Source: Bdellovibrionales bacterium GWA1_52_35 (GTDB lineage: Bacteria > Bdellovibrionota > UBA1018). From it: DNA of 64,000 bases. How positions within the stretch are numbered: position 1 is the first letter of the stretch; every line of letters starts with the position of its first letter. Shown here piece after piece: positions 1 through 15,841 of this stretch. Under the pieces are notes generated by a model, which saw nothing but the letters and a program-made list of their open reading frames with translations, was not told the origin of the DNA and did no database searches. Both the position numbers and the translations under genes were made by a program. The stretch covers positions 75,276 through 139,275 of the forward strand of contig MEPO01000027.1 in assembly GCA_001769805.1 (NCBI GenBank), read 5' to 3'.

Positions 1-15
1 CATATAATCTCCCGA

Positions 16-2160
16 TCAGGGTTTCGCGCCAAAAAGACTCCGCGAAATTCGCATACCTTTAGCTTCCATCTCTTCCACGAATTTCGGAATGAATCCGGTA
101 GGAACAAACCGGCCGATGATCTTCCGTTTTTTGTCCAGACTTTCCTGTTTGTACAGAAATATGTCCTGCAGACTGATCACATCCCCCTGCATCCCGACCA
201 CCTCGGTAATGTGCGTGACTTTCCGGGTGCCATCACTCAAACGGCTTTGCTGAATGATCAGGCCGACGGCGGAAGCGATATTTTCGCGAATGGCTTTGGC
301 GGGAATTCCCAGCCCGGCCATCATGACCAGCGTTTCCAGGCGGGCAATGCACTCACGCGGATTATTCGCATGAAGAGTGGTCAGCGATCCGGAATGTCCC
401 GTATTCATCGCCTGCAGCATATCCAGGGCTTCACCCCCGCGGCACTCGCCGACCACGATACGCTCAGGCCGCATCCGGAGACAGTTCTTGATCAGGTCGC
501 GGATACTGACCTCGCCCTCGCCTTCAATATTCTTCGTGCGCGACTCCAGACGAACGACATGGTCCTGTCCGAGCTGTAACTCTGCAGAATCTTCCACTGT
601 AATGATGCGTTCCGTGGCGGGAATGAAATTGGAAAGCACATTGAGCAGCGTCGTCTTGCCGGAACCGGTACCGCCGGAGACGACAATATTCAACTTGGCC
701 TCAACACAGGCCCGAAGGAAGTCTGCAATTTCGTCGGTCATCGAGCCAAAGCCCACCAGATCCTTGACTTCAATCCGCTTCTTGGGAAATTTACGGATGG
801 TAATGGTCGGTCCACGGAGCGCTAGTGGCGGAATAATCACATGGACGCGCGAACCATCGCGCAGACGCGCGTCGACATAAGGAACTTTTTCGTCCACCCG
901 GCGCCCCAAGGGGGTGACAATACGCTCAATCACGTTCATCATCTGATGCTCACTGCTGAAAGTCACCTTCGACATCTGCGGCTTCCCGTTGCGTTCCAGA
1001 TAGATCTGGTCGCGCGCGTTGACCATGATTTCCGTCACCGAATCATCCGCCAGAAAGTCCTCCAGCGGACCAAGACCGAGTGCCTCATCCAGGACTTCCT
1101 TCACCAGCTGGGCTTTGCTTTCACGCGTCGGACACAGAGAAGATGTGTCTTCGCCATTCAGAATATCGAGAACACCTTTCTGGGTTTTTTCCCTCAGAAT
1201 AGCCCGCTGCTTGGAGTCATTGGTATCCGTGGTCATCTTTTTGAGATCCATCTGCTCCACGAGCGCTTTATGAATGCGGAGTTTCATTGAAGTCCACGGA
1301 TCAATGGCACCGTTAATACTGCGGGCATTCTGGCCATTTTCCGTAGTAGTCAGGTTATTCGCCGCTGTCGCTTTTGCCGCCACCCCCGTGGGTTTCTTCA
1401 GCTTCACGAGGCTCTCAAAAAGATTGACCTGCTGAACCCTTCGGACGATTTCGTGATAGCCTTTGGCGGCCGGGGAATTGGGTGCCCCAATACACAAGGG
1501 AATACTCTTGGCCAGGGAGCTGTCACAGGAGGCCGCATCCTCCAGAATAGCCGCAAAAACCTGCCGATTCAGATTCTTCTGGATCATGGGAAGCGTGACC
1601 ACACTGGCGGGCTGATAGCGATTGACGACGAGCTGAACCATTTCCGGGGGGAACAGAAGTTCCTGGATCCTGGCCAGGACCCGCTTTGTCTGGTTGAGGA
1701 CAATCACGTCGGCCATGGTGACGACGAAAATCGCGGTCGCATATTCCAGTGTCTTCAAAGCCCAGGGTTCCGTTCCCGAACCACAATCCACGACGATCAG
1801 GTTGAACACGTTGGTAATCGCTTTCAGAAATCGCCCATACCCGTCCATGTCAAAATCCTGCACCATCACCGAGTCACGAGGCGCACCAATGAAGCTGAAG
1901 CCCGCCGGAGCGTTCACCATGAAGGGACCCAATGTTTTGGGATCGATGGAAGGTACCTGCAGCTTCGAAAGATCCACGATCGTTCGCTGCGGATTCAGGC
2001 CCAGAATGATATTCTGATCACCCAGGGAATTGAAATCGAGATCAACAATGAGCGGCCGCTGATGAAATTCCTGCTGATAGGCGATCGCGAGATTGGCCGC
2101 AAAAATGCTTTTGCCGACCCCGCCCTTTCCGCCTACCACTGCTACAATGTGTCCGGCCAT
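16..2160 (-). CDS. cpaF: Tad pilus secretion ATPase CpaF/TadA with an N-terminal CpaE/TadZ-like ParA/MinD domain (fusion protein)
   Basis: N-terminus has a deviant Walker A 'VVGGKGGVGKS' typical of MinD/ParA/CpaE proteins (~260 aa). C-terminal ~440 aa has the VirB11/CpaF-type Walker A 'VSGGTGSGKTTLLNVL' and downstream ATPase motifs. True ATG start at 2160; the gene sits last in the co-directional Tad array. Confidence 0.85.
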   Translation of the reverse strand: MAGHIVAVVGGKGGVGKSIFAANLAIAYQQEFHQRPLIVDLDFNSLGDQNIILGLNPQRTIVDLSKLQVPSIDPKTLGPFMVNAPAGFSFIGAPRDSVMVQDFDMDGYGRFLKAITNVFNLIVVDCGSGTEPWALKTLEYATAIFVVTMADVIVLNQTKRVLARIQELLFPPEMVQLVVNRYQPASVVTLPMIQKNLNRQVFAAILEDAASCDSSLAKSIPLCIGAPNSPAAKGYHEIVRRVQQVNLFESLVKLKKPTGVAAKATAANNLTTTENGQNARSINGAIDPWTSMKLRIHKALVEQMDLKKMTTDTNDSKQRAILREKTQKGVLDILNGEDTSSLCPTRESKAQLVKEVLDEALGLGPLEDFLADDSVTEIMVNARDQIYLERNGKPQMSKVTFSSEHQMMNVIERIVTPLGRRVDEKVPYVDARLRDGSRVHVIIPPLALRGPTITIRKFPKKRIEVKDLVGFGSMTDEIADFLRACVEAKLNIVVSGGTGSGKTTLLNVLSNFIPATERIITVEDSAELQLGQDHVVRLESRTKNIEGEGEVSIRDLIKNCLRMRPERIVVGECRGGEALDMLQAMNTGHSGSLTTLHANNPRECIARLETLVMMAGLGIPAKAIRENIASAVGLIIQQSRLSDGTRKVTHITEVVGMQGDVISLQDIFLYKQESLDKKRKIIGRFVPTGFIPKFVEEMEAKGMRISRSLFGAKP

Positions 2161-2175
2161 TCCCGATAATCCCCT

Positions 2176-3822
2176 TTATTTCACTTTCACACGGAAATTT
2201 TTGCGAAGATCCTCTGTGCCATCGGAGGCGTTGTCCACGATTTGCGGGGTGACAAAGATGACAAACTGGGACTTCGATCGATTATAACCCTTTGAACGGG
2301 TCAGGTTGAACAATTCTTCGGTATTCTGGGCAAACTGCCCGGTATCCGGAGTTTTATTGAATACCGTCTTCACGCGGGAAGAATTGATGGCCGCTACGGC
2401 GGCGCTTTCGTTGGATTTGACATAAAGCTTCGTGGTGACCTTGTGGGTCGCCACGATCGGCGCGCCCGAGGCGCCCTGGGATACGAGTTCATTTTCGAAC
2501 ATGTCCAGGTCCAGCTGAATGTCCTCGCTCGACCCCAGGATCATCGGTGTCGCAGAAACTTCAAGACCCACTTTTGCCGAGGCGGCAGCTGTTTGCGTAC
2601 CGCTTTGGACCAGATATGGAATTTCTGTGGTTTGATTGAGTTTTGCCTGCTGCCCGCTACGGACAATGATCGTTCCGGTGTTGAGGACCCGGGCATATCC
2701 GGCATCCTGCGCGCTCTTCAATTTCGGGAAGAGACTGGAAATGGTCGCACTGAAAGAAGCACCGGTGCCGCCGACACCACCAGTGCCGGTACCAATGGTA
2801 AATTGATCCGAACCGCTGGTGAAACCAGGGCGCCAAACAAAGCCGAAGGCTTTGCTGTAATCCTTTGAAAGCTCCACAAAATGAATGGTGACACGAACGA
2901 GCCGCTCTGCTTTCTTCGGAGGTGGAGGGCTGACCAGAATGAAATTCTGAATCATGGCTCCGGCTTTTCCCTCAAGCTTTTTTGCATCTCTTTCCACGGT
3001 CGTAAGAGGATCGGCGGGCTTGGGGTCGGGCAGATAAAGTTCCGCGACTCTTGTCGCACGCTGGGCCTTGTCCAGACTGTCTACCGTTCCTTCCAGAAAT
3101 ATTTTCCCGTTCACGACCCGGGTTTTCACATTCTCCGCGAAGACATTGATGTCTTCCTGGATTTTTCTCGCCAAAACCTGCATTGCCAGAGGTGAAAGCA
3201 CCATGAGATTGATCACCCAGGAACCGTAGGCGGAATCACTGATGACCCGAAGCACCCTTGTATAGTCACCTGGCACGAGCACTTCACCTTCAACGATTAC
3301 CTTCATGCCGACCACTCGGATTTCGACACCTTCGACATCCCGAACCAAATTGCGGATTTCTGCGGCAATCCGGTACACATTGGCTGCCGTCACCCGAACG
3401 GTGAAGATCACCTTGATCGTACCCTCCGGATCACGGACGGTCACGGTTGTGGTGCCTTCTTTCGCCGGTCGGAATACGATCTGGTATTTGCCGCCAATAT
3501 TACCCACAATCGGCACCACGACGTCCGGTTTGGCAACCGAGACCTGCAGTTTGGGATCAGGAATTTCGAAATCCAGATCAACCACTTTGTCTTCGACAAT
3601 ACTGAGCACCAGCAGTCGCCGATCGGCGGTTTTTTCTGATTCATCAGAGGTATGCCTGGAACGGCGAAATTTTTTCTTTTTGCGGGCGGACGCCGGTTTT
3701 TCATCGGCGGTTCCCGCTGCTGCACCGGGGCCCGTTGCCGAGGGGGGTGCGTCTTCAGCATAGGATGGCAGCGCTGCCATTACCAGCAGTGAAACCATGC
3801 CTGAAATCAGAAACCGCTTCAT
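2176..3822 (-). CDS. cpaC: Tad pilus outer-membrane secretin (CpaC/RcpA family)
   Basis: Signal peptide 'MKRFLISGMVSLLVMAALPSYA'. Lys/Arg-rich linker, then a secretin-type C-terminal domain (GxxxVPxL-like glycine-rich beta-rich region, '...LNTGTIIVRSGQQAKL...'). Start chosen at the internal ATG at 3822 (the ORF track starts at 3900). Confidence 0.8.
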   Translation of the reverse strand: MKRFLISGMVSLLVMAALPSYAEDAPPSATGPGAAAGTADEKPASARKKKKFRRSRHTSDESEKTADRRLLVLSIVEDKVVDLDFEIPDPKLQVSVAKPDVVVPIVGNIGGKYQIVFRPAKEGTTTVTVRDPEGTIKVIFTVRVTAANVYRIAAEIRNLVRDVEGVEIRVVGMKVIVEGEVLVPGDYTRVLRVISDSAYGSWVINLMVLSPLAMQVLARKIQEDINVFAENVKTRVVNGKIFLEGTVDSLDKAQRATRVAELYLPDPKPADPLTTVERDAKKLEGKAGAMIQNFILVSPPPPKKAERLVRVTIHFVELSKDYSKAFGFVWRPGFTSGSDQFTIGTGTGGVGGTGASFSATISSLFPKLKSAQDAGYARVLNTGTIIVRSGQQAKLNQTTEIPYLVQSGTQTAAASAKVGLEVSATPMILGSSEDIQLDLDMFENELVSQGASGAPIVATHKVTTKLYVKSNESAAVAAINSSRVKTVFNKTPDTGQFAQNTEELFNLTRSKGYNRSKSQFVIFVTPQIVDNASDGTEDLRKNFRVKVK

Positions 3823-3847
3823 TTGGATAAACATACGCTCCGTTTCA

Positions 3848-4690
3848 TCACCTTTTGGCCGGCACTCGTTGAACACGCCCGGCATCCGCACCCAGAACAT
3901 CCATCAGCATCACTCCTGGCAGATTAACCCGCTCGGTATCGTCATTATTCCGCAAAGAGAGCGTGAGCAGGTTTTCACCGCTGGCCGAGAGTAAGGCCAG
4001 CATCTGCACCTGCGCGGGCTCAACCTCAAGAGTGACGGAATTGAAAGTGAAGTCCTCCGCCAAAGGTCGGACCCGGTCCCTGCCTCCAGTGGGATCCGCT
4101 TCAATCACGCGCGGAACGTTATTCGTGACACTCCGACCGACAGCGAGCACCACAATATCCTGCAAAACTGTTTTGACGATCTTGGTATCCTTGCCGCCAC
4201 TGTCAATCACGGCAATCAGGTCGACCCGATCGCCCGGTTTGACGAGTTTGCCGATACTTGTGGTCTCACTGATACCGATCGAAACCGCGCGTCTCCCCGG
4301 CGCGACCTGGGGCGCCAGTCCGGTACGAATTCCTGGATGAGTCATTTTGTTCAATGTGATCTGCTCGCCCTTTTTGATCGGAACCATGGCGACACTTCCG
4401 GCCAGACTCTTGATGACCCGGGTCCCCTCGAGCTCAGATTCCTCCTGCTTTTCGCGTTTTGCGAACGAAACAGCGGAGGGCTCCAAGAACGCCCTGGGGA
4501 TGACCGAAAGCTCGATCATGGTCTCATCAATCGTCTCCGTATCCTTGATGTCGACCTTGGCTTTCAGGACATTGACTTCCGTTCCGAATTTCTTCTTCTG
4601 ACCCTCTTCCAGACTGCCGATGTAACTCTGCACAAAGAGCACTGCGAGAACACCCATAATGAGAGAGAGAGTCACTGCTCTGTTATTCAT
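3848..4690 (-). CDS. cpaB: Flp pilus assembly protein CpaB (RcpC) family
   Basis: N-terminal membrane anchor 'MNNRAVTLSLIMGVLAVLFVQSYIG' followed by a SAF/CpaB-like periplasmic domain. Located between the pseudopilin and secretin genes. Start set at the internal ATG at 4690. Confidence 0.7.
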   Translation of the reverse strand: MNNRAVTLSLIMGVLAVLFVQSYIGSLEEGQKKKFGTEVNVLKAKVDIKDTETIDETMIELSVIPRAFLEPSAVSFAKREKQEESELEGTRVIKSLAGSVAMVPIKKGEQITLNKMTHPGIRTGLAPQVAPGRRAVSIGISETTSIGKLVKPGDRVDLIAVIDSGGKDTKIVKTVLQDIVVLAVGRSVTNNVPRVIEADPTGGRDRVRPLAEDFTFNSVTLEVEPAQVQMLALLSASGENLLTLSLRNNDDTERVNLPGVMLMDVLGADAGRVQRVPAKR

Positions 4691-5228
4691 TGTATCTGCT
4701 CCTGCAAAGTTCAAATTTTGAAGCTTCTCCCAACCCGTAAGGACCGCTGGCCGTATAGACTTTTCTGTCCGGTGATTGAACCGGCAGGATGGGCCTGCCA
4801 TCCGCAAGAACGTTTTGCTGTGTACACATGGATACGGTACTGCGGACGCGGATCTTGGACCGTTCCGGCGGAGTCATCCGATCCTCACTGCCCTGAACGC
4901 CGGGGCGAGTAATCGAATAGTTCATGGACATAGGGGGGCTTCCATCGAGAATTTCAATCGCCGAAACTCCGATGATCATCTGGTTGTATCCGATGTTGGT
5001 GAGATCGTTTGTCCGCAGAGCCATGCCCGGGAAATAGGGACTGTTCATGGCCAAAGCAAGCGCGTGAGAGCGTGAATATTTTTGATTGACGAGCGAAATT
5101 TGAATCACCGTGTTGATCTTGATCATCAGCATGGTGAGGATCACCATCATGGGGAGCATCAGGATCAACTCCAGGACACTCTGTCCACGGGTACTCTGCT
5201 GTTTATGGCTATGCGACTTAACAGCCAT
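4683..5228 (-). CDS. TadE/TadF-like pseudopilin (Flp pilus assembly)
   Basis: N-terminal 'QQSTRGQSVLELILMLPMMVIL' matches the TadE-like motif (RGQxxVEFxL plus a hydrophobic helix). Third of three tandem paralogs. Start uncertain (5228 vs 5264). Confidence 0.6.
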   Translation of the reverse strand: MAVKSHSHKQQSTRGQSVLELILMLPMMVILTMLMIKINTVIQISLVNQKYSRSHALALAMNSPYFPGMALRTNDLTNIGYNQMIIGVSAIEILDGSPPMSMNYSITRPGVQGSEDRMTPPERSKIRVRSTVSMCTQQNVLADGRPILPVQSPDRKVYTASGPYGLGEASKFELCRSRYNE

Positions 5229-5757
5229 TATCGATGATCCCCTTTTTTGCTCCCATTTCCTCACTGCATTCCTGATAAGATGGTTCTCTCCCCAACCAGC
5301 TCTCTGAAGTTAAAGTCAGCTGATTCGCTGCATCACCTTTGGGCGTCAGGCCCGCAAACGGCAGCAGAAAAAGCTGGCTCTTGAATCTGTATCGGACTCC
5401 TTGCATCCAAACTGTATCGAAATTCGCCGGATCATAACGCGGATGGTTAATCTGGAAGCCTTTGATATCACTTCCCTCAAAGCCCTTTGCCACCCAGGGA
5501 TACCGGTCTGTGCCATTCCCTTTGTTCTTCACTGTCGCCAGGATGATTTCCTGGGCATTGGCGATCTGCTCGTCGGGTGTACTTCCTGCAGAGAGATAGG
5601 CCCGGGCCGACATGAAAGTGGCGTATTGCACATAATTACTGAACCCGAAGATCAGTCCGAGCCGCAGAAAAAACATCGAGAAACTCATGAGTAAAATCAA
5701 GACGAGCGCGAACTCCACCGTGGATTGTCCTGCCTGTCTTTCTTTTTTCAGACTCAT
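5218..5757 (-). CDS. TadE/TadF-like pseudopilin
   Basis: N-terminal 'MSLKKERQAGQSTVEFALVLILLMSF' is TadE-like. Start uncertain (5757 vs 5772). Confidence 0.6.
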   Translation of the reverse strand: MSLKKERQAGQSTVEFALVLILLMSFSMFFLRLGLIFGFSNYVQYATFMSARAYLSAGSTPDEQIANAQEIILATVKNKGNGTDRYPWVAKGFEGSDIKGFQINHPRYDPANFDTVWMQGVRYRFKSQLFLLPFAGLTPKGDAANQLTLTSESWLGREPSYQECSEEMGAKKGIIDNGC

Positions 5758-5768
5758 TTCACACCTTC

Positions 5769-6044
5769 TCACCGGGGATTGATAAACAGCCGAAAGCTAT
5801 TCATTCCGCCATCTTCCGCTCGCGGATGATTTTCGGAAGTACCCTCATCATTACTGCGACCTTTGGGATGCCCGACCTGATAGGCATTTTTGTAATCCTC
5901 CTGGATCGGTTTCAGCATTTTTTCGCCGAGCTGAAACGTCGTCAAGGAACGGACGAACGCGATGTAGGCAGAAAGCAGGATGATCAGCAGAAGGATGTAT
6001 TCGAAAGTAGCCTGACCGGCCTGTCTTCGTTTTTTCAAAACCAC
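5769..6044 (-). CDS. small TadE/pseudopilin-like protein
   Basis: N-terminal 'VLKKRRQAGQATFEYILLLIILLSAYIAF' has the same RQAGQxT(F/V)E(Y/F) motif as the two downstream paralogs. The start is probably a GTG/TTG near 6044 rather than the GTG at 6059 used by the ORF track. Confidence 0.5.
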   Translation of the reverse strand: MVLKKRRQAGQATFEYILLLIILLSAYIAFVRSLTTFQLGEKMLKPIQEDYKNAYQVGHPKGRSNDEGTSENHPRAEDGGMNSFRLFINPR

Positions 6045-6589
6045 GGAAACACCCCCCACTTCTGCAGAGGATGGTCAAACAGGACCCAGACTGCCGCAAT
6101 CGCGATCGGAATGCCGAAAGGCATCGTCAATTTGCGATCGACCACGGGAGCCTGGATTTCCAGTTCACGGATGAAAACCGAGAGAAGAAAACGGTATAGG
6201 CGGCGTGAAAAATCAGGCAATCGGCCCTTTGCGAGCAGAAGAAGCGCTGCCAGAACGCCTCCCAGCAGAATGGAAAGAATCGCTGTTTCAAAAACATATT
6301 TCGGATCCGTCCAGGCTCCGAGCGCCATCAGAAGTTTCACGTCACCGCCACCCATCACCCGAAGCGCAAAGAGCCAGCCGAAAAGCACGAGCCCGGCAAC
6401 TGCCCCCAGTAACCCCGTTCCCAGGCCACTGAAGCCAGAGACATAAAAGGAAGCGACCAATCCGAGGCAAAATACCGGCAGCGTGAACCAGTTGAAAATT
6501 CGGCCCCAGACCAGATCAGTAAACAGCGCCACCAGCGAAATCAGAGGAATCGCATAATAAATGACAAGCTCAGTTGTCCCGCCAGACAT
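6035..6589 (-). CDS. cpaA: A24-family prepilin peptidase (CpaA/TadV)
   Basis: Polytopic membrane protein, 184 aa, with acidic residues in cytoplasmic loops ('...TDLVWGRIFNW...', '...GGGDVKLLMALG...', a GGDVKL-type motif of A24 peptidases). Sits between the pilin and pseudopilin genes. Confidence 0.75.
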   Translation of the reverse strand: MSGGTTELVIYYAIPLISLVALFTDLVWGRIFNWFTLPVFCLGLVASFYVSGFSGLGTGLLGAVAGLVLFGWLFALRVMGGGDVKLLMALGAWTDPKYVFETAILSILLGGVLAALLLLAKGRLPDFSRRLYRFLLSVFIRELEIQAPVVDRKLTMPFGIPIAIAAVWVLFDHPLQKWGVFPWF

Positions 6590-6797
6590 TGACTGGAATC
6601 CTCCCGGTCTTGAGATCCTTCTCGAGTTGTGAACCCAGCTTCAGCATTCCACGGTCTGTCAATCGCATGATGATCCGAACCACGGCCATCACCGCGACAA
6701 TCGTTACGGTCAGAATGAGGATATACTCGACCGTCGTCTGACCTCTTTCGTCGTCAAACAAGGACCGAGAAAATTTTGGAATGGATGCTGTACCCAT
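6570..6797 (-). CDS. flp: Flp family type IVb/IVc pilin (Flp-2)
   Basis: '...DDERG|QTTVEYILILTVTIVAVMAVV' has the Flp G/xxxxEY processing motif followed by a hydrophobic helix. Start probably at the internal ATG at 6797 (the ORF track gives 6827). Confidence 0.7.
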   Translation of the reverse strand: MGTASIPKFSRSLFDDERGQTTVEYILILTVTIVAVMAVVRIIMRLTDRGMLKLGSQLEKDLKTGRIPVNVWRDN

Positions 6798-6862
6798 CGT
6801 TCTACCCGCAGTGGGCCCCAATCCCATTCTAGCAAATCATGAAAAAGTGTATGGAGAGCGGA

Positions 6863-7045
6863 TCAATTGATATCCTGCATGGCTTCGCCCATCTTGCCAT
6901 CCAGAACATTCAACATACCCGAAAGCTTACCGCCAAATTCCTTCTTGAATCGCAGCGCGACGAGAACCACCACGGAGAGAATGAGAATATACTCCGTCGT
7001 CGACTGTCCGCGATCGTCCCCCCACAAAGCTTTTAAAAAATTCAT
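6863..7045 (-). CDS. flp: Flp family pilin (Flp-1)
   Basis: 60 aa. 'MNFLKALWGDDRG|QSTTEYILILSVVVLVAL' has the Flp motif plus a hydrophobic helix. Good RBS (GAGGGAG) and an AT-rich promoter region upstream. Confidence 0.8.
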   Translation of the reverse strand: MNFLKALWGDDRGQSTTEYILILSVVVLVALRFKKEFGGKLSGMLNVLDGKMGEAMQDIN

Positions 7046-7211: not shown

Positions 7212-7961
7212 TTAAAAAAACATTACCATGCCGGTTGCGTTCTCCTCGAACTGGCACTCGCTCAGAACGGCAGTAATCTCGCGAGCAGGTTCCTGAACAC
7301 CGGAAATCTGCCTGGAAATCTGTATGGAACCGATCGTCTGTACTGCTTTTGATCCCAAACCATCGGTTTGCAGCAGTATCCAATCCCCTTTTTTAATACG
7401 ATACTCCATGATCTCCGGCTCAAGGTCCTCCGCCATTCCCAGCGCAGCCAACGGGATATTTAAGGCTGGACTCGCTTGCAGTGAAAGCGGATCGATCATT
7501 CGGGCATAAGTCCGAGGGAGGACGAGTTCAACTGGCTGTCCGTTCCGAAAGAGCCAGGCAGAACAGGATCCGACATTCGCCAGCGCCAGAAGATCGCCAT
7601 CGAGAAAAGCAGCGAGCACTGATGCGCCGCCGCGTTCATGAGTTCCTTTGTCGTGATTCATTTCCAGAATTTTGAGATTGGCGTGAATGAGTGCATTGAA
7701 CAGAACGTTTCCTGCCAATGAGAAATAGGACCGCAGAACGAAAGGCAGGGTGGCTTCCCGATCTCCGCCTTCTTTTTTCAGAAATCCCCGGACCGTCTCG
7801 CAGGCAAGCTTGGAGGCGCCCACCCCGGCGACCGGTCCCCCAAAACCATCCGCAATAACAAAAATTCCATTATCCTTCACCTCAAGCGCGTGGTCCTCCT
7901 GCAACTCGCGCCGGCCCCGATCCGAAAACATTGCGATTGCGTGCACAGGAAGTCTTCTCAT
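7212..7961 (-). CDS. PP2C-family Ser/Thr protein phosphatase
   Basis: Motifs 'RELQEDHAL', 'FVIADGFGG' and 'ILLQTDGLG' match PPM/PP2C metal-binding motifs. 249 aa. 4-bp overlap with the upstream FHA gene. Confidence 0.8.
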   Translation of the reverse strand: MRRLPVHAIAMFSDRGRRELQEDHALEVKDNGIFVIADGFGGPVAGVGASKLACETVRGFLKKEGGDREATLPFVLRSYFSLAGNVLFNALIHANLKILEMNHDKGTHERGGASVLAAFLDGDLLALANVGSCSAWLFRNGQPVELVLPRTYARMIDPLSLQASPALNIPLAALGMAEDLEPEIMEYRIKKGDWILLQTDGLGSKAVQTIGSIQISRQISGVQEPAREITAVLSECQFEENATGMVMFF

Positions 7962-10285
7962 TCCAGGTCACCTTTTTTCAGATAACGCGACAGCTTGCGC
8001 TTGGAGCGCTCATAGTAAATATCATCGACCGGTGCGACACTCAGGCATTCTTTGAATTTGTTCTTGGCAGTATCAAAATCGCTATAGCTTTCAGCAAGAA
8101 CGGCTTCGGTATAGATCACCTTCGCGCGATCGTGGAGCACGGCCCGCAGACGCTTCATTCCCAGATAGCCGGCCGGATGTTCCGGATCGACAAGCGTCGC
8201 TTTCCGGTAAAGCTGATATGCCCGCGCCAGATCACCCGATTCCTCCAGTTGTTTCGCTTCCTGCAGGAAGGGCTCCCGTACCGCCGCAATCGCGGCTTGC
8301 GCCCGCCTCATCAGAGCTGCGCGCGCTGGGTGCAGCTTCGGATCAGAGGCCCCCATTTCAGCCAGCTCTTTGAGAATATTGATGGCCTGCCGGTACTTGC
8401 CGGCCTTGAAACGGGCTTTCGCTTCCGCATAGACGCCCCAGGCATGCTTGTTGATTTGTGTGCGGGTCTGTTTTTGTATTTCCTTGATACGCTCGGACTC
8501 TTCCCATTCGCCGATCTCTTTGCGCCAGGCTCCCACCTCTGCGTTGTCAGGATCAATTTCCAAAATTCCCGGGAAGAGTTCGCTGGCTTTCCGATACTGC
8601 TTCTTCTCCATCAAGTCGCGGACCTCATCGGCCAGCTCGGCAACCCGGGCCTTGATCCGCGCTTCCTCTTCCTTCCTCTTCTTCTCTTCTTCCATGGCTT
8701 CACTGCGCCGCTTTCCCTGCTCTGCATAGTGCTTCAGCTCGATAGAATTATCGTAGTCCGAAACCAGTGAAAACAGCTGACTCAATTCGTAGAGAGCTTT
8801 ATCGAAATCCCCATTGGTGTAGTATTGGAAAGCCAAGGCGTGTTTTGCTTTTACAAATTTCTGTTCCTCGGGTTTCAACCGTTCAAAAGTTCTCAAGCTG
8901 CTTTTATCGAGAACCCCTGGACTCGGCTTGGACTGCGGTTTTCGCTGCAATTTGGGCGCATCCCCTTCTTCCATTCCCCACCAGAGCGCCAGCAGGCCGA
9001 GGGCTCCGACCAGGAATTTTTGTCGGGCAGGAAGTTTTGCGAAGAGACTCTTGCCCTTGTTTCCACCCATTCCGGCAATCCCGGTGACGCCGGTCATTCC
9101 CGGAATATGAGGACTCGGAGCGGAGGCGGAATTCCCGCCCGCTCCCACGCCCGGCAGAATATTGATCCGCGATTCCTTGGCATCCCAGGCATTGGACTCC
9201 CCACCGGAAGGAACAGGACTTGACTGGATCAGACTTGAAATTTCCGGAACAGGGAAAGAATAGCTTTTGTTCTCACTTTCAACGGGGAGCGCTGATTGGA
9301 CCTGCCGTGTATAATCAGCACTTTTGATAAGAAAATTGAAAATCACATCACCAATCTGGATCTGATCTTCGCCCGTGAGTTCCTGCTCACTAATTTTCAC
9401 ACCATTGACGAAAGTACCATTGGCTGAAGCAAGATCCTTGATCACATAACTCAAGCCAGCTTTGCGTATGATCGCGTTCTTGCGGGAAGCTCGTTTATCA
9501 TTCAATACGATGTCACAGGTTTTCGCACGGCCGATCGAAATTTCATCGCCACTGAAAACGTATTCTTCGACGTTCGCACTGCCCGGCTTGAAAATCAGGC
9601 GGACTGCAATTTTGCCGATCGGCGCGACTTTGGTCGCGGCATCACTTTCGGCAATTTCCATGAATTTAGTGGCCAGCGGCATAGGATCATCCAGCGCGGC
9701 TGGCAGCGCGGCGGGTTTTTCAGGATCGGACATGATAGGATGAACCGGTGCAGGAGTAGGGGCCGGCTCTGACTCTTCCCCCTGCGGCATTTCAATCGGA
9801 CTTTCGTTAATCGGTAAAACAGTTGCCGGCGCGGCATCACTCAAATCAGACAGGGGTTCTTCATATTGATCCGGCCCAGCCTTGGGTACGGACGGTACCA
9901 GAGCCGGCTTGATCGGAATGACAGGCACTTCCTGAGCGATCGGTGCAGCAGGAGCTGCGCGCAAGGGATTTGCCTCTGCTGGTGGAATCGAAACCTTCAC
10001 CAGGTAAGGACCCAGGGCTATGACATCGCCCTCGACCAGCATGCCGCTCGCGCAAAGCTTTCCGTTGATGCTCAAAGGAGCATATTCACTTTTCTTTTCG
10101 ACCTGTATGCCTTCAGGAGTCTGGGTAAATACGACATGACGTCGCGAAATAGCCCGATCTTCAAGCCGAATCACGCAGTCTTCGCCTCGGCCTACGACAA
10201 GCGGCCTGCTGTTGGGCGGGAGCTGGCAGGATTTGATCACCTCGCCATTTTTCAGAAAGGTGAGAAGTGGAGCAGCACCCATCAA
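7958..10285 (-). CDS. membrane protein with two N-terminal FHA domains and a C-terminal TPR-repeat domain
   Basis: FHA-1 '...LVVGRGEDCVIRLEDRAISRRHVVF...'. FHA-2 '...ISIGRAKTCDIVLNDKRASRKNAIIRKAGLSYVIKDLASANGTFVNG'. Pro-rich linkers, one TM helix 'FLVGALGLLALWWGM', then ~330 aa of TPR-like helical repeats. Confidence 0.75.
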   Translation of the reverse strand: MMGAAPLLTFLKNGEVIKSCQLPPNSRPLVVGRGEDCVIRLEDRAISRRHVVFTQTPEGIQVEKKSEYAPLSINGKLCASGMLVEGDVIALGPYLVKVSIPPAEANPLRAAPAAPIAQEVPVIPIKPALVPSVPKAGPDQYEEPLSDLSDAAPATVLPINESPIEMPQGEESEPAPTPAPVHPIMSDPEKPAALPAALDDPMPLATKFMEIAESDAATKVAPIGKIAVRLIFKPGSANVEEYVFSGDEISIGRAKTCDIVLNDKRASRKNAIIRKAGLSYVIKDLASANGTFVNGVKISEQELTGEDQIQIGDVIFNFLIKSADYTRQVQSALPVESENKSYSFPVPEISSLIQSSPVPSGGESNAWDAKESRINILPGVGAGGNSASAPSPHIPGMTGVTGIAGMGGNKGKSLFAKLPARQKFLVGALGLLALWWGMEEGDAPKLQRKPQSKPSPGVLDKSSLRTFERLKPEEQKFVKAKHALAFQYYTNGDFDKALYELSQLFSLVSDYDNSIELKHYAEQGKRRSEAMEEEKKRKEEEARIKARVAELADEVRDLMEKKQYRKASELFPGILEIDPDNAEVGAWRKEIGEWEESERIKEIQKQTRTQINKHAWGVYAEAKARFKAGKYRQAINILKELAEMGASDPKLHPARAALMRRAQAAIAAVREPFLQEAKQLEESGDLARAYQLYRKATLVDPEHPAGYLGMKRLRAVLHDRAKVIYTEAVLAESYSDFDTAKNKFKECLSVAPVDDIYYERSKRKLSRYLKKGDLE

Positions 10286-11283
10286 CGCACCCCTCCCTTC
10301 ATTTCTTTTCTGACGGAATCAAGCTGTTCTTTAGCAACGATATAGGACTCATCACTCTGTGCCCGGTGCAAGAGGCGCAGCACCGACTCAAAATGCCCGC
10401 GGGCATCTTTCAGCTTGCCGGCACTTTGTGACTTCTTGCCCACTTCCAGGTGAAACTTCACCTCTTGCGTGATTTCGCGATTACAGTTTTCAAGATAGAG
10501 TGTCGCAAGCCGGTGCCCCGGTGCGATCTGAAGAACGGTTTCGAATTGAACCCGCGCCCGCAAGTAATTTTTTTCCCGGAACTCCCGGAACCCGCTCCGG
10601 TAGAACATTTCAGCCGTTCTATTGACCGCGGCTTCAGCTCCTTTTGGAAGATACGAAGCAAGGTCTCTTTGGGCCTCAAGCTTCTCCGGCTTTTTCTGAC
10701 GAGGAGCCTGTTCATCCTTGCCCAGGAAAAGCACCAGCATCAAAACCGCTCCCGCTCCAAGATAAAGCTTGGTGCGGTTTCCGCCACTTCCGGCCGCACC
10801 CCTGACCCCAGCACCGCCCCCCAGAAGGGATCCGCTCGAATCAATGCCGCGCGCGCGTTTTCGCTGGGCCTCGAAAGCTGCTTGTTCTGCTTCGATCTGC
10901 TTTATATCCCGAGGAGGTGCGATCAGCATCATTGTGCCCGCTTCAGCGGCCACGAACTCGAAAGTCGTTTCTCCGATTTTGAAAGTATCCTTCAGCTTCA
11001 GGCGCCCGCCTCTGGTGGGCGCGCCGTTCAACAGCATTCCATTTGCACTGGCAAGATCCCGGATATTCCAAGTATCACCCGTGCCAACAATTTCGGCATG
11101 AATCCGCGATGCTTTCAGATCGGAAATTATGATGTCGTTTTCATCACCGCGACCAATCGTGGCACGACTTCGCAGAAGAACATAGACGCACCCATAATCA
11201 GGACCCTGGATCACCTTGAGCCGGGCCAGCTCACCTTGCTGTTTCGGAAGGGTGCTTTGTTTGAAACGGATTGCTGTGCCCAT
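10282..11283 (-). CDS. FHA-domain membrane protein with C-terminal TPR-like domain
   Basis: FHA '...ATIGRGDENDIIISDLKASRIHAEIVGTGDTWNIRDLASANGMLLNG'. TM helix 'LYLGAGAVLMLVLFLG'. C-terminal TPR-like region. 4-bp overlaps on both sides. Confidence 0.75.
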   Translation of the reverse strand: MGTAIRFKQSTLPKQQGELARLKVIQGPDYGCVYVLLRSRATIGRGDENDIIISDLKASRIHAEIVGTGDTWNIRDLASANGMLLNGAPTRGGRLKLKDTFKIGETTFEFVAAEAGTMMLIAPPRDIKQIEAEQAAFEAQRKRARGIDSSGSLLGGGAGVRGAAGSGGNRTKLYLGAGAVLMLVLFLGKDEQAPRQKKPEKLEAQRDLASYLPKGAEAAVNRTAEMFYRSGFREFREKNYLRARVQFETVLQIAPGHRLATLYLENCNREITQEVKFHLEVGKKSQSAGKLKDARGHFESVLRLLHRAQSDESYIVAKEQLDSVRKEMKGGVR

Positions 11284-12941
11284 CAGCTCTCCGATCTCAC
11301 GAATGTGATCACGAAACCCTTGATCTGGCCTCCCGGCATGGCGAATGCCGCAGCGTTGACTCTGTACGCGATGCCTTCAAATTCATAATCCTCGGAAATC
11401 GTTTCTCCAGAGCTTGCCGTCACCCGGTCAATCAGATCCCCGGCAAAGGAATCAAAGGCTTGATCCCGCGCCACGGCCGAAATGGTCTGTCCCACGGCCG
11501 TGTCGCCCCGAATTCCGCTGATTTCCTGAAAGATCGTGTTCAGATAGACAATCCGGCGTTCATGATCGCAGAGAACCAGGCCGAATTTCGACAACTCTCC
11601 CATCATTCGAACGGGGCCGGCAAAAATCTCCGTTGAAATGGCACCTTCCACAGACTGACTGTCCATCGTGGAGGCGCGAGGAATACGCTGCAGAGCTGAA
11701 TCGATCAGCTGCCAGAGTTGATTCGTGTCTTCCACTTTGTACTCATGCGTGACTTGGGCGATGTCGCCCTTCAAACCTTTTTCGAGATCTTCAGTCAGTA
11801 TCCGATAAGGTCGCAAGGTGAGCCGCCGGACAATTGCGAAGATGAGGATCGCGAATAGGCCTGTGAATATGAAAGTCTTTGAATAGATGACGCTGATTTC
11901 TCCGGTATCGAGTGTCACGAGTCCGGTATCGATGGACACGATCGACATTGCCGCCACCACATTCCGTCCTGCTCGCGAGCTGAAGACTTTGACCGGTTCG
12001 ATCGCGGTGATCGTTGATTCATCGAGTTCGGCCGCATATCCGGTCTCCCGACCCCTGTCGAACTGTTCTTTCATTTTCCGGGCAAAACGCGACTCGACAC
12101 CGGAAGTCAAAATATTTCCCGCTTTCGAAGGCGGCGCCAGTACGCGGTTATCGAGATCCACCAGCAGCGCCAGCTTCACTCCCTCAGCATCTTCCGCAAG
12201 TCCGATTTCAGTTTTAGAACTCGCACCAGCAGCCACGAATTGGACGTTCTGTTCCGCGATCTGCCGGGCCATGAAACGAGCTCGGCTGCTTGCTTCCTTT
12301 ACGACCGTCATCCGGCCGGACTCAATCAGCGGATAGACCGAAATAACCAGATTTCCCAGAGTCAGCACCGCGAGCAGTCCAAAGATCATCAGATGCCACT
12401 CGTGCTTCAGGTTCAGGGAATAGAATATCGGCATGATCTGCCGTTCAAAATACCAGAGCAATTTTTCCTTGAGGTCCTTGGGGGGCGTATTTGCATTCAT
12501 GGCATCAATCGCCATTTGCGATGAGCCACCTTGGGATCCGATACCGAATTCCGAAACTCCGGCAGGCAGTGATTTCGAAGATCCGACCGAAGCCAGAGCG
12601 ATCACGTTTCCTAAGCCTGCGACGTCTGGCGCTCTTCTCGGTGTTTTCGCTTTGGGATCGCTGATTTCGAAGACGTATTCTCCGACGCTGATCCGGTCGC
12701 CGAGATTCACTGTTTTTGTTTTCGCTAGGATTCCATTGATGAACGTACCGTTTGAACTGCCCTGGTCCTGGACAATGATTTCGTCCTTGCTGACCGAAAG
12801 CACACAGTGGTGCTTCGAAACCCGCGCAGATGGCAATACGACGACATTGTCGCCATGGCGACCTATCGAGGTACTTCCGTTTTCCTGCAGCACGTAACTG
12901 CTACCCGAATTGGGGCCAGCCACGATGGTCAGCTTATACAT
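11283..12941 (-). CDS. FHA-domain membrane protein with periplasmic loop and C-terminal PAS-like domain
   Basis: FHA 'TSIGRHGDNVVVLPSARVSKHHCVLSVSKDEIIVQDQGSSNGTFING'. Two TM helices ('WHLMIFGLLAVLTLGNLVISVYPLI', 'IFTGLFAILIFAIVRRL') flank a ~150-aa loop. C-terminal PAS-like segment '...GLVLCDHERRIVYLNTIFQEISGI...'. Confidence 0.7.
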   Translation of the reverse strand: MYKLTIVAGPNSGSSYVLQENGSTSIGRHGDNVVVLPSARVSKHHCVLSVSKDEIIVQDQGSSNGTFINGILAKTKTVNLGDRISVGEYVFEISDPKAKTPRRAPDVAGLGNVIALASVGSSKSLPAGVSEFGIGSQGGSSQMAIDAMNANTPPKDLKEKLLWYFERQIMPIFYSLNLKHEWHLMIFGLLAVLTLGNLVISVYPLIESGRMTVVKEASSRARFMARQIAEQNVQFVAAGASSKTEIGLAEDAEGVKLALLVDLDNRVLAPPSKAGNILTSGVESRFARKMKEQFDRGRETGYAAELDESTITAIEPVKVFSSRAGRNVVAAMSIVSIDTGLVTLDTGEISVIYSKTFIFTGLFAILIFAIVRRLTLRPYRILTEDLEKGLKGDIAQVTHEYKVEDTNQLWQLIDSALQRIPRASTMDSQSVEGAISTEIFAGPVRMMGELSKFGLVLCDHERRIVYLNTIFQEISGIRGDTAVGQTISAVARDQAFDSFAGDLIDRVTASSGETISEDYEFEGIAYRVNAAAFAMPGGQIKGFVITFVRSES

Positions 12942-13318
12942 AATTCGTCCCCTGCGCGTAGGGTGCAGCGTTCAATCGTTCCGTCCGGAAGCTCCAAGGT
13001 ATCGTCGGCTTGCCGATCAAAGAGCGGAAGAATCCGCCATGGCCTGACTCCGGGATGTACCGAGCTGATCTTCCAGGACGTTTTTCCCTGCGCAGTGACC
13101 TCCTTTCGAATAAATACGACATCAATCCGCATCGTCATGAACCAGGTGTGAATGTTGTTGCACTCCGGGAACAACATTCCTGCACCGTTTTCGAGGGAGG
13201 ATTTTCCGATCAGTCCACGAAGACGATCGAAAAAATGCTCCGCCTCATAACACTTATCGGCAATAAGGGCTTGATTTGTTAGGGACTGCACCTTTTTCAA
13301 TTGAGCATGGATTTTCAT
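12929..13318 (-). CDS. DUF192 (COG1430) domain protein
   Basis: 129 aa. 'RLRGLIGKSSLENGAGMLFPECNNIHTWFMTMRIDVVFI' matches the DUF192 core (RGLMxR...GMLF...M...iDv.Fi). Overlaps neighbouring genes by a few bp, so it is in the same operon. Confidence 0.6.
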   Translation of the reverse strand: MKIHAQLKKVQSLTNQALIADKCYEAEHFFDRLRGLIGKSSLENGAGMLFPECNNIHTWFMTMRIDVVFIRKEVTAQGKTSWKISSVHPGVRPWRILPLFDRQADDTLELPDGTIERCTLRAGDELCIS

Positions 13319-14031
13319 TCGGGTTTTCCACCCTGGGGGATAAAGGCCAGCGGCTGATTTTCTTGAATTTTCCTGATCAACTCCGAACGACCCGGCTCTT
13401 CGAGTGTCAATATTTCAACGCCCATTCCTTTCGGCAAAATATCCGCTCTGGGGCGAACCCATCGTACAACGCCGGTTCCAGAGAGCCGAATTGACGGATC
13501 ACTCAAATGGAGTTCAAGCCGGACTACTTCGTCCACGGTTGCTTCAACTATTCCAGGAACGAATATGCCGCCTCGCCCGACACATCGCCAGTCGATAGCC
13601 GTTTTTTGAAAAGCAAGCGTCTGCGGCTCCATCTGCTCAACTGCAGACCATCGCTCCGCCTGTGGCAACAGCAGGTTCGCGATCGTACTGATCACTTTTC
13701 GCATACTGAAGGGTTTCGGGAAAATGGCATCCGCACCCATATCGTAAAGTGACTCGGTGGTTACATCGGCAAAGCCGGAGATCAGCGAGAAAACCGATTC
13801 AGAGGTGCGCTCCCGTACTTTCCGGAGCAGTTCCGTACCATCCCCTCCCGACATGCGGACGTCTGAAATAATGACCTCTGGCGAAGACTTTAAGAATAGT
13901 TCAAAACCTTCGGTGCCATTCGCAGCTGCGAGGCTCTTGCTGCCACGTGCAGACAGGGCTTCGCAGATCAGTTCACGAATCAATGGCTCATCATCGACCA
14001 CAAGAATGGTCTTGCCCTCAAGAGGATTCAT
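13315..14031 (-). CDS. response regulator with N-terminal receiver and C-terminal PilZ-like domain
   Basis: REC 'KTILVVDDEPLIREL...EVIISDVRMSGGDGTELL...FPKPF'. C-terminal beta-rich domain ending 'GVVRWVRPRADILPKGMGVEIL' resembles PilZ. The canonical RxxxR/DxSxxG c-di-GMP motifs are not obvious. Confidence 0.65.
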   Translation of the reverse strand: MNPLEGKTILVVDDEPLIRELICEALSARGSKSLAAANGTEGFELFLKSSPEVIISDVRMSGGDGTELLRKVRERTSESVFSLISGFADVTTESLYDMGADAIFPKPFSMRKVISTIANLLLPQAERWSAVEQMEPQTLAFQKTAIDWRCVGRGGIFVPGIVEATVDEVVRLELHLSDPSIRLSGTGVVRWVRPRADILPKGMGVEILTLEEPGRSELIRKIQENQPLAFIPQGGKPE

Positions 14032-14819
14032 CAGGCCGCCTCCCTGACGTGAGTGTAAGCCAAAGGCATCCGGAGCAGAAAACAGGTCAATTCATCGCTC
14101 TTCAGCAGTAATTCTCCTTGATGGGCTTCCATGATTTGTTTTGAAATCGAAAGGCCCAGTCCTGTGCCCTGGGCCTTTGTGGTAAAGTGCGGCTCCATGA
14201 CCCTGCTGCGAATCGCCTCGGGAATTGCCGGACCACTGTTTGCAATCTGGAGCTCCAGACTGTTCTCATTTCGCGCTATTTCAATCGATATCCATTTTTT
14301 TCCGGAACGGCTGGTTTCATTTCCGATGGCTTCGATCGCCTCGACTGCGTTGAGCAGAAGATTGAGAAGCACTTGCGTGATCTGCGCGGGCCTGCAATCA
14401 ATCTTGAATTCCTGTTCCAGCGGTTCAATTCTGAGTTCGATCTGAAGTTGCAGCAATTTCGAACGCACCAGGCTGATTGTCATGCCTAGAATTTCGTCCA
14501 GACTGGCGCGCACAAAGGACTCTTCCTGAGTGTTGCGACTGAGCGCCTTAACACCCAGGACCACTTTTTCGATGTGGCGGGCAGTCAACTCGATCTGCTC
14601 GAGCGACTGCTCCAGCTGTTGCGGGTCCAGCTCACCCGTCTTCAAAAGTCCACGGAGATGAGTCGTTCTGGCTAAGATCACCGTCAGCGGACTGCAGACC
14701 TCATGCACAAGTCCGGCAGAGAGTTCTCCCAAAGCGCGCATTTTTTCGAAATGCTCCTGGTTGTTTTCCGCTTCGGAATACTGACTGGCCCAATTCCGGA
14801 TGTTTTTCCAGATACTCAT
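14031..14819 (-). CDS. cytoplasmic sensor histidine kinase (HisKA + HATPase_c, no obvious sensor/TM)
   Basis: H-box 'LSAGLVHEVCSPLTVI'. N-box 'LLNLLLNAVEAI'. G-boxes 'TGLGLSISKQIMEAHQGEL'. 1-bp stop/start overlap with the REC-PilZ gene. Confidence 0.8.
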   Translation of the reverse strand: MSIWKNIRNWASQYSEAENNQEHFEKMRALGELSAGLVHEVCSPLTVILARTTHLRGLLKTGELDPQQLEQSLEQIELTARHIEKVVLGVKALSRNTQEESFVRASLDEILGMTISLVRSKLLQLQIELRIEPLEQEFKIDCRPAQITQVLLNLLLNAVEAIEAIGNETSRSGKKWISIEIARNENSLELQIANSGPAIPEAIRSRVMEPHFTTKAQGTGLGLSISKQIMEAHQGELLLKSDELTCFLLRMPLAYTHVREAA

Positions 14820-14878
14820 TCAATTACGTATCGGTACTCAACCTAAAAATTTATAGGAAAAACAAAAGCTAAGCTGAA

Positions 14879-15841
14879 TCAGGATCGTGTGAATGCCACG
14901 AAGGCCCCACCGATCAGGCCGGCATTATTGTGAAGACTGGAAACTTTCAGATCAGGCATCAGGTCCACCCCAACTCTGCGCCTGACAAGGAGTTTCTCAA
15001 GATGCGTTTTGGTTTTTTTCATAAAGAGATCAGCGGTTTGGGCGAAGCTGCCCGTTAAAATTACGAGTTCCGGAGCGTAAACCACGGCATAATTGTGAAT
15101 AGCCACGGCCATCAGGAATGAATACTCATCGAACATCGCTCTGGCATTCAAATCGCCCGATCTGGCCATGTCCGCAATTTCCTTGGCATCCAACTTTTCG
15201 TTGCCCAATTTCACGCGGGCTCGGCGGGTGAAATTTCGTCCCGAAAGATAAGCTTCGGCGCAACCATGATTCCCGCAGCCACAAGGCGCGGATTCGTCAT
15301 TGTACTGCAGAATCAGATGCCCCGCCTCGGGATGGAGATCCCGCCCGGCGCGAACCAATTCACCGTTGACGATAATTCCGGTTCCCAAGCCAGTGCCAAG
15401 AGTCAAAATCATGGCGTTTTGGGATTTGCGGGCAGCCCCGACCCAATGTTCGGCCAGGATCGCTGCGGCCGCATCATTTTCCATCACGACTGGAAGTTTC
15501 AGTTTTCGGGAAAGCAATTGTGCGAGAGGCGTCTTGCCCCAGGCGCCTTCAGGTCCCGAAAAATTCGTCGGGTCCAGCAAAACTCCTGTTTTCGGTTCCA
15601 AAGGACCTGCCGAAGCGATCCCGATGCGTTTGATCTTCGGATACTCGGCAATCATTTCCTGGCCCAAGTCAGCCAGTTGACGGATGACTGCCTGCTTTCC
15701 CTGCCTGAAGACAACCGGAACACGCTTGCACTTGAGCACTTTCCCGCTCGAATCCACCACTCCGACCTCGACCTTGGTTCCTCCAAGATCGTAAGCCAAA
15801 ACATAAGGAATTTTCGTCAACAGACCTTTCTGACTCATCAA
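14879..15841 (-). CDS. ROK-family glucokinase
   Basis: N-terminal 'LAYDLGGTKVEVGVVD' (ATPase fold) and the ROK zinc motif 'CGCGNHGCAEAYLSG'. Confidence 0.8.
   Translation of the reverse strand: MMSQKGLLTKIPYVLAYDLGGTKVEVGVVDSSGKVLKCKRVPVVFRQGKQAVIRQLADLGQEMIAEYPKIKRIGIASAGPLEPKTGVLLDPTNFSGPEGAWGKTPLAQLLSRKLKLPVVMENDAAAAILAEHWVGAARKSQNAMILTLGTGLGTGIIVNGELVRAGRDLHPEAGHLILQYNDESAPCGCGNHGCAEAYLSGRNFTRRARVKLGNEKLDAKEIADMARSGDLNARAMFDEYSFLMAVAIHNYAVVYAPELVILTGSFAQTADLFMKKTKTHLEKLLVRRRVGVDLMPDLKVSSLHNNAGLIGGAFVAFTRS

Follow-up and report, generated by a model that had tools for sequence, protein, structure and literature searches.

Within the 64,000-nucleotide window analysed here (positions 75,276 to 139,275 of contig MEPO01000027.1, assembly GCA_001769805.1, Bdellovibrionales bacterium GWA1_52_35), one gene encodes a MinD/ParA-type ATPase module and a TadA/CpaF secretion motor as a single polypeptide. 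It is very probably orthologous to tadZA, which in the Bdellovibrionota encodes the ATPase that unites positioning and motor functions in the machine of the Tad pilus (Flp, type IVc); the present copy comes from an uncultured groundwater member of the Bdellovibrionales. The fusion is already known from this phylum, where it is being studied experimentally: the TadZA fusion of Bdellovibrio bacteriovorus HD100 was described and studied experimentally in a July 2026 preprint (bioRxiv 10.64898/2026.07.08.737194), which refers back to earlier work (its reference 13) on the fact that the two are fused, and a genome paper of March 2026 noted a CpaE domain in the CpaF of predatory Bdellovibrionota (PMC13147790). 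The premise of a first-pass annotation of this sequence, that TadZ and TadA are always separate in characterised Tad systems, is outdated in the light of these two publications. For the protein in the window, our analysis itself establishes the fused architecture and its conservation, the affiliation with TadZ, the loss of the atypical receiver domain (ARD), the intact motifs, the disordered tether and the tad-locus context.

Architecture and conservation of TadZA

The two parts of TadZA are read as one protein, encoded by a single ATG-started open reading frame (ORF) of 714 amino acids, according to the ORF list and the translation. The first-pass annotation had described this fused product without giving its strand; it lies on the minus strand, where the translation starts MAGHIVAVVGGKGGVGKS, and the plus-strand translation of the same region is stop-ridden. 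Between the two domains we find neither a stop nor a change of frame. An AGGGG resembling a ribosome-binding site (RBS) lies 10 nt upstream of the ATG and the stop of the preceding secretin gene 15 nt upstream; because these two elements fix the start, there is no room for an upstream exon encoding a receiver domain. We also considered an internal start at M292 that would yield free TadA, and rejected it: only close relatives keep the methionine, divergent fused proteins have L, F or V in its place, and no clear RBS precedes it.

The N-terminal module and the motor each contain the Walker A motif quoted for them in the first-pass annotation, GGKGGVGKS at residues 10-18 and GGTGSGKTT (within SGGTGSGKTT) at residues 495-504. 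The former is of the deviant type, G10-G-K12-G-G-V-G-K17-S18, with both the signature lysine K12 and the P-loop lysine K17 present. This K12-K17 Walker A is invariant in 71 close homologues, and K12 is at least 90% conserved in a more divergent set of fused proteins. Walker A' (D40, D42), Walker B (D125) and the NR motif (N180) are also found in the module, and all of them are invariant in the 71 close homologues.

The C-terminal part, from about residue 288 to residue 714, appears from its motifs and profile matches to be a complete and catalytically intact TadA/CpaF, and the full CpaF ATPase of the first-pass annotation stands. Pfam assigns T2SSE (1.2e-64) to residues 361-638 and NCBIfam the TadA family model TIGR03819 (5.5e-98) to residues 348-652. 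The four catalytic motifs SGGTGSGKTT, IITVEDSAEL, RPERIVVGECR and AMNTGHSGSLTTLHAN are intact and conserved across the family, and the Walker B of the motor carries the catalytic glutamate. The best solved relatives of this part, found with Foldseek, are structures of Caulobacter crescentus CpaF (8RJF, 9E24 and 8RKD) at 47-48% identity, with 48% for 8RJF.

The border between the two domains, which had been placed at around 1300-1400 of the window, falls at residues ~263-287 (window 1300-1374) and consists of a low-complexity linker of variable length. In C. crescentus CpaF a disordered NTD0 and a three-helix NTD1 have been described (PMC11300603). The linker of TadZA sits where CpaF has NTD0, to which it is probably equivalent, and in the predicted structure residues 288-360 appear to correspond to NTD1 by position and conservation. 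The helices of this region are predicted at moderate confidence only (AlphaFold2 pLDDT, the predicted local distance difference test, of 55-75), and it is conserved as DPWT.MKLRIHK.LVE.MDLKK.

A gene that joins two functions usually encoded side by side could be an artefact, in which a frameshift, an assembly error or a lost stop turned two genes, tadZ and tadA, into one in a single assembly. In many phyla besides this one, tadZ and cpaF do lie side by side, often in the same frame with only a stop between them, so that one error could mimic a fusion. However, 14 contigs encode the exact 714-residue protein, and they come from separate assemblies, comprising groundwater metagenomes and metagenome-assembled genomes (MAGs) from different samples and made with different assemblers. 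When 5.8 billion protein clusters were searched, more than 120 homologues came back, each 713-746 residues long and aligned end to end with 100% query coverage and 75-91% identity; the named ones among them are all Bdellovibrionota or Oligoflexia MAGs. Using the N-domain as query against 1.84 billion representatives clustered at 50% identity, we found at least 11 further divergent fused clusters of 711-777 residues, whose N-domains are 22-43% identical to the query. Ten of ten divergent representatives checked by Pfam combine MinD/ParA with T2SSE; six of these ten are named, five of them as Bacteriovoracia, Bdellovibrionales, Pseudobdellovibrionaceae or Bdellovibrionota and one as 'bacterium'. 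Bdellovibrio sp. HCB288 has an orthologue in a 740-residue ORF, 47% identical over residues 18-714. In B. bacteriovorus the full-length TadZA protein has been detected (bioRxiv 10.64898/2026.07.08.737194), and the systematic loss of the ARD in fused proteins, described below, is beyond what assembly error explains. Because the fusion is conserved in so many independent and divergent sequences, a one-off frameshift is ruled out, and we give the artefact in any form a negligible chance. The first-pass annotation had called a frameshift unlikely and proposed a search for fused orthologs; the close homologues and the divergent clusters now answer both points.

The exact protein is annotated as 'hypothetical protein' at NCBI (OFZ00328.1 and others; Bdellovibrionales bacterium GWC1_52_8 / GWB1_52_6). 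Its homologues carry the names 'septum site-determining protein MinD', 'pilus assembly protein CpaF' or 'ATPase, T2SS/T4P/T4SS family', and the fusion is recognised in none of these names.

Affiliation of the N-terminal module

In Pfam the N-terminal module matches the CobQ/MinD/ParA nucleotide-binding domain (CbiA, 3e-12) at residues 4-215, and also ParA and AAA_31. Its NCBIfam matches are minD_arch (2e-18), minD_bact (4e-17) and CpaE_hom_Actino (1e-12), with the MinD models aligned over residues 4-263; BcsQ and Ssd match as well. The AlphaFold2 model of the module is confident (pLDDT ~70-92). Foldseek returns PDB 3EA0 as its best fold match, with a template modelling (TM) score of 0.88-0.90 and a root-mean-square deviation of 2.2 Å, then FlhG, FleN, MinD and Soj; against 3EA0, FlhG and MinD the TM scores range from 0.73 to 0.90. 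A profile of the fused N-domains searched against the PDB also ranks 3EA0 first (1e-41).

Within this superfamily the module appears, on three lines of sequence comparison, to be TadZ-type, closer to TadZ/CpaE than to MinD, FlhG or ParA. First, its nearest stand-alone relatives in the library of 1.84 billion proteins are proteins of ~380-420 residues that match it at residues ~130-380, and some of them carry an N-terminal Pfam Response_reg domain, which is the canonical receiver-plus-ATPase architecture of CpaE/TadZ. Second, 185,579 species genomes were scanned with the N-domain, which matches a separate gene directly upstream of cpaF in ~45 loci from Chloroflexota, Actinomycetota, Acidobacteriota, Firmicutes, Proteobacteria and other phyla; by its position, this gene is tadZ/cpaE. 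Third, we built a hidden Markov model (HMM) from 41 context-verified stand-alone TadZ ATPase domains, each encoded immediately upstream of cpaF. With this model the N-domain of the window reaches 176 bits, 3EA0 179 bits and the Pyrococcus furiosus MinD control 130 bits. In the reciprocal comparison, an HMM of the fused N-domains gives stand-alone TadZ proteins a median of 168 bits, 3EA0 140 bits and MinD 99 bits. PDB 3EA0 is a structural-genomics entry that scores TadZ-like with the context-verified profile and that, like the fused N-module, has no ARD.

Several observations weigh against the assignment of the gene as a tadZA orthologue. The loci behind the TadZ HMM were retrieved by similarity to this TadZA, so that the score of the window domain is biased upward, although the direction of the two comparisons is consistent. 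No curated model places the N-domain in the TadZ family: its best NCBIfam matches are the MinD models, at 62-68 bits and below their curated cutoffs (202-213 bits), and the Ssd/CpaE-related model TIGR03815 comes lower still, at 47-50 bits. In the PDB search with the fused-N-domain profile the Eubacterium rectale TadZ (3FKQ) is a weak match (5e-10), behind MinD and FlhG. The full-length structure prediction suggested in the first-pass annotation delivered a confident N-module and a disordered linker, but its CpaF half is poor (pLDDT 35-70, predicted TM score 0.43) because the alignment is shallow (75-91% identity), and it is uninformative on contacts between the domains. The 47% identity quoted above is to the nearest Bdellovibrio sequence compared, that of sp. 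HCB288, and not to the HD100 protein. Finally, a scan of the window recognised no gene resembling romR, the gene for the polarity hub to which the B. bacteriovorus protein binds. The same scan recognised no second tadZ or tadA, and the remainder of the window consists of housekeeping genes.

The rankings of the curated models and of the PDB entries would be expected if the N-module did not derive from TadZ at all and a MinD-, FlhG- or ParA-type ATPase had been captured independently, so that the motor would be coupled to some other means of positioning, for instance a gradient on the membrane or the nucleoid. The complete KGGxGK[ST] motif could be read in the same way, as it is MinD-like and many TadZ proteins replace its second lysine; however, KGGVGKT also occurs in many bona fide TadZ proteins. 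The TadZ HMM places the N-module 46 bits above the MinD control and the reciprocal medians point in the same direction, the closest stand-alone relatives have the receiver-plus-ATPase architecture of TadZ, and the module does not have the strongly amphipathic C-terminal helix of MinD (hydrophobic moment ~0.5). Moreover, adjacency of tadZ and tadA is the ancestral arrangement, which makes a fusion of neighbours the simplest route to the present gene. We therefore consider an independent capture very unlikely and continue to regard the N-module as derived from TadZ.

The C-terminal end of the N-module runs on into the linker, and at this border the homologues share the motif L-x-x-L-x-K-L-K-K-P. 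As a MinD-type membrane-targeting amphipathic helix it was rejected, since its hydrophobic moment, only ~0.5, is far from the highest in the protein. The motif is invariant or nearly so in the 71 close homologues, is weakly amphipathic, and remains recognisable as LxxLxxLxxP in the majority of the divergent Bdellovibrionota fusions. It falls inside the region that the B. bacteriovorus preprint mapped as needed for binding of RomR. LxxLxKLKKP is a possible candidate for a partner-binding site.

Loss of the receiver domain and fusions in other lineages

The first-pass annotation took the N-terminal region for a complete CpaE/TadZ-like ParA domain. The TadZ-type ATPase of ~260 residues is there, as the HMM score and the receiver-plus-ATPase relatives indicate, but as a TadZ protein the module is incomplete: the ARD is missing. 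In this TadZA the Walker A motif begins at residue 10. The stretch ahead of the Walker A motif measures 0-15 residues in all fused proteins examined, but 123-192 in 41 of 41 stand-alone TadZ proteins. Fusion and ARD loss co-occurred in every case that we examined.

Single-ORF TadZ-TadA fusions without an ARD are also present in MAGs labelled Omnitrophota, WOR-3 and Elusimicrobiales and in two unclassified bins (Table 1), with N-modules 24-26% identical to that of the window. In a nearest-neighbour BLAST comparison, the N-module of the Omnitrophota fusion is nearest to stand-alone TadZ, and the C-modules are nearest to other fused proteins. It is conceivable, though on balance we doubt it, that TadZ-TadA fusion with loss of the ARD is a recurrent cross-phylum solution rather than a peculiarity of the Bdellovibrionota. 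If the fusions were independent, the strict pairing of fused proteins without an ARD and separate proteins with one would imply that the ARD normally serves to hold TadZ on the motor or machine, a function that the covalent link makes redundant, and not to read a polar landmark. If the solution is indeed recurrent, the ARD-less fusion might also be a sign of lineages whose Tad machines serve to attack other cells or attach to them.

Other apparent full-length fusions in the genome scan, from Chloroflexota, Actinomycetota, Acidobacteriota, Firmicutes and Proteobacteria, turned out to be two adjacent genes when ORFs and frames were checked, and long ORFs at three high-GC or N-masked loci (L013, L077 and L073) were discarded as fusions. 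In many phyla stand-alone tadZ and cpaF lie in the same frame with a stop and a few codons between them, and tblastn merges them into one high-scoring segment pair; such pairs are one mutation short of a fusion. The ranking used for retrieval favoured these same-frame cases, and their frequency among the ~45 loci (L008-L078) is not meaningful.

The tad locus, related systems and a possible mechanism

TadZA sits in a full tad locus, with the gene order flp, flp, tadV, three tadE/F-like genes, rcpC, rcpA, tadZA and tadB (Table 1). The ATG of tadB lies 12 nt past the TGA stop of tadZA, and on the source contig (locus L081, 12158-16123) tadB encodes a T2SSF protein of 289 residues directly after tadZA; it is followed by a 561-residue DUF6531/RHS/YD-shell protein and by two small or unassigned ORFs (86 and 315 residues). 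The genome of the closest species (77% identity) has an identical order of 12 genes and the same order in the regulatory block, again with tadB directly downstream of tadZA (locus L001, downstream region 12166-14888), and Bdellovibrio sp. HCB288 has the order tadE-rcpC-rcpA-tadZA in common with the window. We did not find a second T2SSF gene in the tad locus; because it holds a single T2SSF platform gene, tadC must lie elsewhere. Upstream of the pilin genes, the regulatory block includes FHA-FHA-TPR (775 residues), FHA (333 residues) and FHA-PAS (552 residues) proteins. No Ser/Thr kinase adjoins this block, and it resembles the FHA-rich Kil loci of Myxococcus xanthus.

Table 1. Coordinates of tadZA, its domains and motifs, the neighbouring tad genes and the ARD-less fusions found in other lineages
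Feature	Position (window, unless a locus is named)	Strand	Basis or remark
tadB	1..3	-	ATG; gene runs off the window; RBS GGGAG at 9-13
tadZA, TadZ-linker-TadA fusion	16..2160	-	single ORF; stop TGA at 18-16
TadA/CpaF NTD2 and catalytic C-terminal domain, aa 361-714	19..1080	-	intact Walker A, Asp box, Walker B, His box
TadA Walker A SGGTGSGKTT, aa 495-504	649..678	-	translation, motif audit
CpaF NTD1-like three-helix region, aa 288-360	1081..1299	-	AlphaFold2 helices 288-303, 316-336, 346-360
Low-complexity, length-variable linker, aa 263-287 (~25 aa)	1300..1374	-	AlphaFold2 pLDDT <50 for aa 266-286; gapped, variable alignment columns
TadZ/CpaE-like ParA/MinD ATPase module without ARD, aa 1-262	1375..2160	-	Pfam, NCBIfam, TadZ profile, AlphaFold2, fold match
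Conserved motif L-x-x-L-x-K-L-K-K-P at TadZ/linker border, aa 247-257	1390..1422	-	alignment of homologues
Deviant Walker A GGKGGVGKS, aa 10-18	2107..2133	-	K12 and K17 both present
rcpA/cpaC secretin	2176..3900	-	Pfam Secretin 2.8e-16 and BON
rcpC/cpaB	3848..4807	-	Pfam RcpC 1.5e-22
Three TadE/F-like minor pilin genes	4683-5264, 5218-5772, 5769-6059	-	Pfam TadE for 5218-5772; N-termini ...GQ(A/S)T(F/V)E(Y/F)
tadV/cpaA prepilin peptidase	6035..6589	-	Pfam Peptidase_A24 7e-18
Two Flp-type pilin genes	6570-6827, 6863-7045	-	Flp motif RGQ(T/S)T(V/T)EYILIL
Regulatory block: PP2C phosphatase, FHA-FHA-TPR, FHA, FHA-PAS, REC-PilZ, histidine kinase	7212..14819	-	Pfam
ARD-less TadZ-TadA fusion, Omnitrophota MAG	L010 2368-4545
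ARD-less TadZ-TadA fusion, WOR-3 MAG	L031 2038-4470
ARD-less TadZ-TadA fusion, Elusimicrobiales MAG	L061 9983-12199
ARD-less TadZ-TadA fusion, unclassified bin ('uncultured bacterium')	L056 4794-7001
ARD-less TadZ-TadA fusion, unclassified bin ('uncultured bacterium')	L006 4068-6176

The system closest to this one is that of B. bacteriovorus HD100, in the same phylum, where a tadZA-tadB operon forms part of tad locus 1, tadC lies elsewhere, and FHA, TPR, PilZ and histidine-kinase genes are found nearby (bioRxiv 10.64898/2026.07.08.737194). Both proteins combine an ARD-less TadZ with a flexible linker and TadA, and the absence of an ARD from the B. bacteriovorus protein is reported in the same preprint. 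Both genes occupy the same position in the series rcpC-rcpA-tadZA-tadB, and both loci contain a single T2SSF gene in a neighbourhood of FHA, TPR, PilZ and histidine-kinase genes. The two systems differ in their hosts, that of the window being an uncultured groundwater Bdellovibrionales MAG, and in the prepilin peptidase: the locus analysed here holds its own tadV, whereas the tad loci of HD100 reportedly have no canonical TadV and PilD processes Flp (bioRxiv 10.64898/2026.07.08.737194). In Bdellovibrio sp. HCB288 (locus L005) we found no tadV match near tadZA.

With the canonical two-protein system, represented by TadZ/CpaE and TadA/CpaF of C. crescentus and Aggregatibacter actinomycetemcomitans and by the 41 sampled loci, TadZA shares homologous ATPase domains, the order tadZ then tadA, and the tad context. 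It differs in being one polypeptide, in having no N-terminal ARD, and in carrying its TadZ module in place of the disordered NTD0 found in CpaF. KilF of M. xanthus (PMC8460266) is likewise a Tad-type CpaF ATPase of a predator with an extra N-terminal domain and an FHA-rich locus; however, the extra domain of KilF is FHA and not ParA/MinD, and Kil assembles at sites of prey contact and not at the pole. PDB 3EA0, a ParA-family ATPase of 245 residues from Chlorobium tepidum, is both the best profile and the best fold match to the N-module and resembles it in its TadZ-like score and in the absence of an ARD, but it is a stand-alone protein and only 23% identical to the N-module.

For B. bacteriovorus, the preprint reports that TadZA is essential and is needed for prolonged attachment to prey, invasion and predation, that it binds the polarity hub RomR through TadZ and the linker, and that it redistributes rapidly from pole to pole, in less than a second, with a bias towards the invasive pole (bioRxiv 10.64898/2026.07.08.737194). 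CpaE, the TadZ of A. actinomycetemcomitans (AaTadZ) and B. bacteriovorus TadZA have polar localisation and the recruitment of Tad components in common (same preprint). From this work and from knowledge of the family we infer a hexamer, polar targeting and a RomR-like partner for the protein of the window as well. By analogy, its TadA part would form a hexamer on the TadB/TadC platform of the inner membrane and power both extension and retraction of the Flp pilus. The TadZ module and the linker would act as an address label, six modules being tethered to each hexamer. As the TadZ module retains its deviant Walker A, Walker A', Walker B and NR motifs undamaged, it probably dimerises in an ATP-dependent manner, cycling between states. 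It may bind a polarity hub, as it does RomR in B. bacteriovorus, and this binding would deliver the motor to the assembly site of secretin and platform at a fixed 1:1 stoichiometry.

Alternatively, the TadZ module could be a catalytically silent adaptor, a permanently monomeric or dimeric docking domain, with the fusion replacing the tether that the ARD otherwise provides. TadZ proteins bind ATP with low ATPase activity (PMC6668835), the P-loop lysine is replaced in some divergent fused clusters (GVGTS, GSGTT, GVGQT), and fusion and ARD loss always go together, as this explanation would predict. However, the invariance of all nucleotide-binding and catalytic motifs across the 71 homologues of this lineage argues for selection on nucleotide handling, and the sub-second dynamics of the B. 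bacteriovorus protein are more typical of a nucleotide-cycling ParA/MinD protein. A silent adaptor appears to us the less probable arrangement, although it deserves consideration; we lean towards a TadZ module that binds and cycles nucleotide.

Apart from one more orthologue, from an uncultured groundwater lineage, the window contributes little. Together with its relatives, this orthologue indicates that the TadZA architecture is ancient and found throughout the phylum, that fusion always goes with loss of the ARD, and that tadV has stayed inside the tad locus in some lineages. In B. bacteriovorus, TadZA may be what connects RomR, the polarity hub, with the Tad nanomachine on which invasion of prey depends. 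The fusion couples the place where the pilus machine is built to the motor that powers it.

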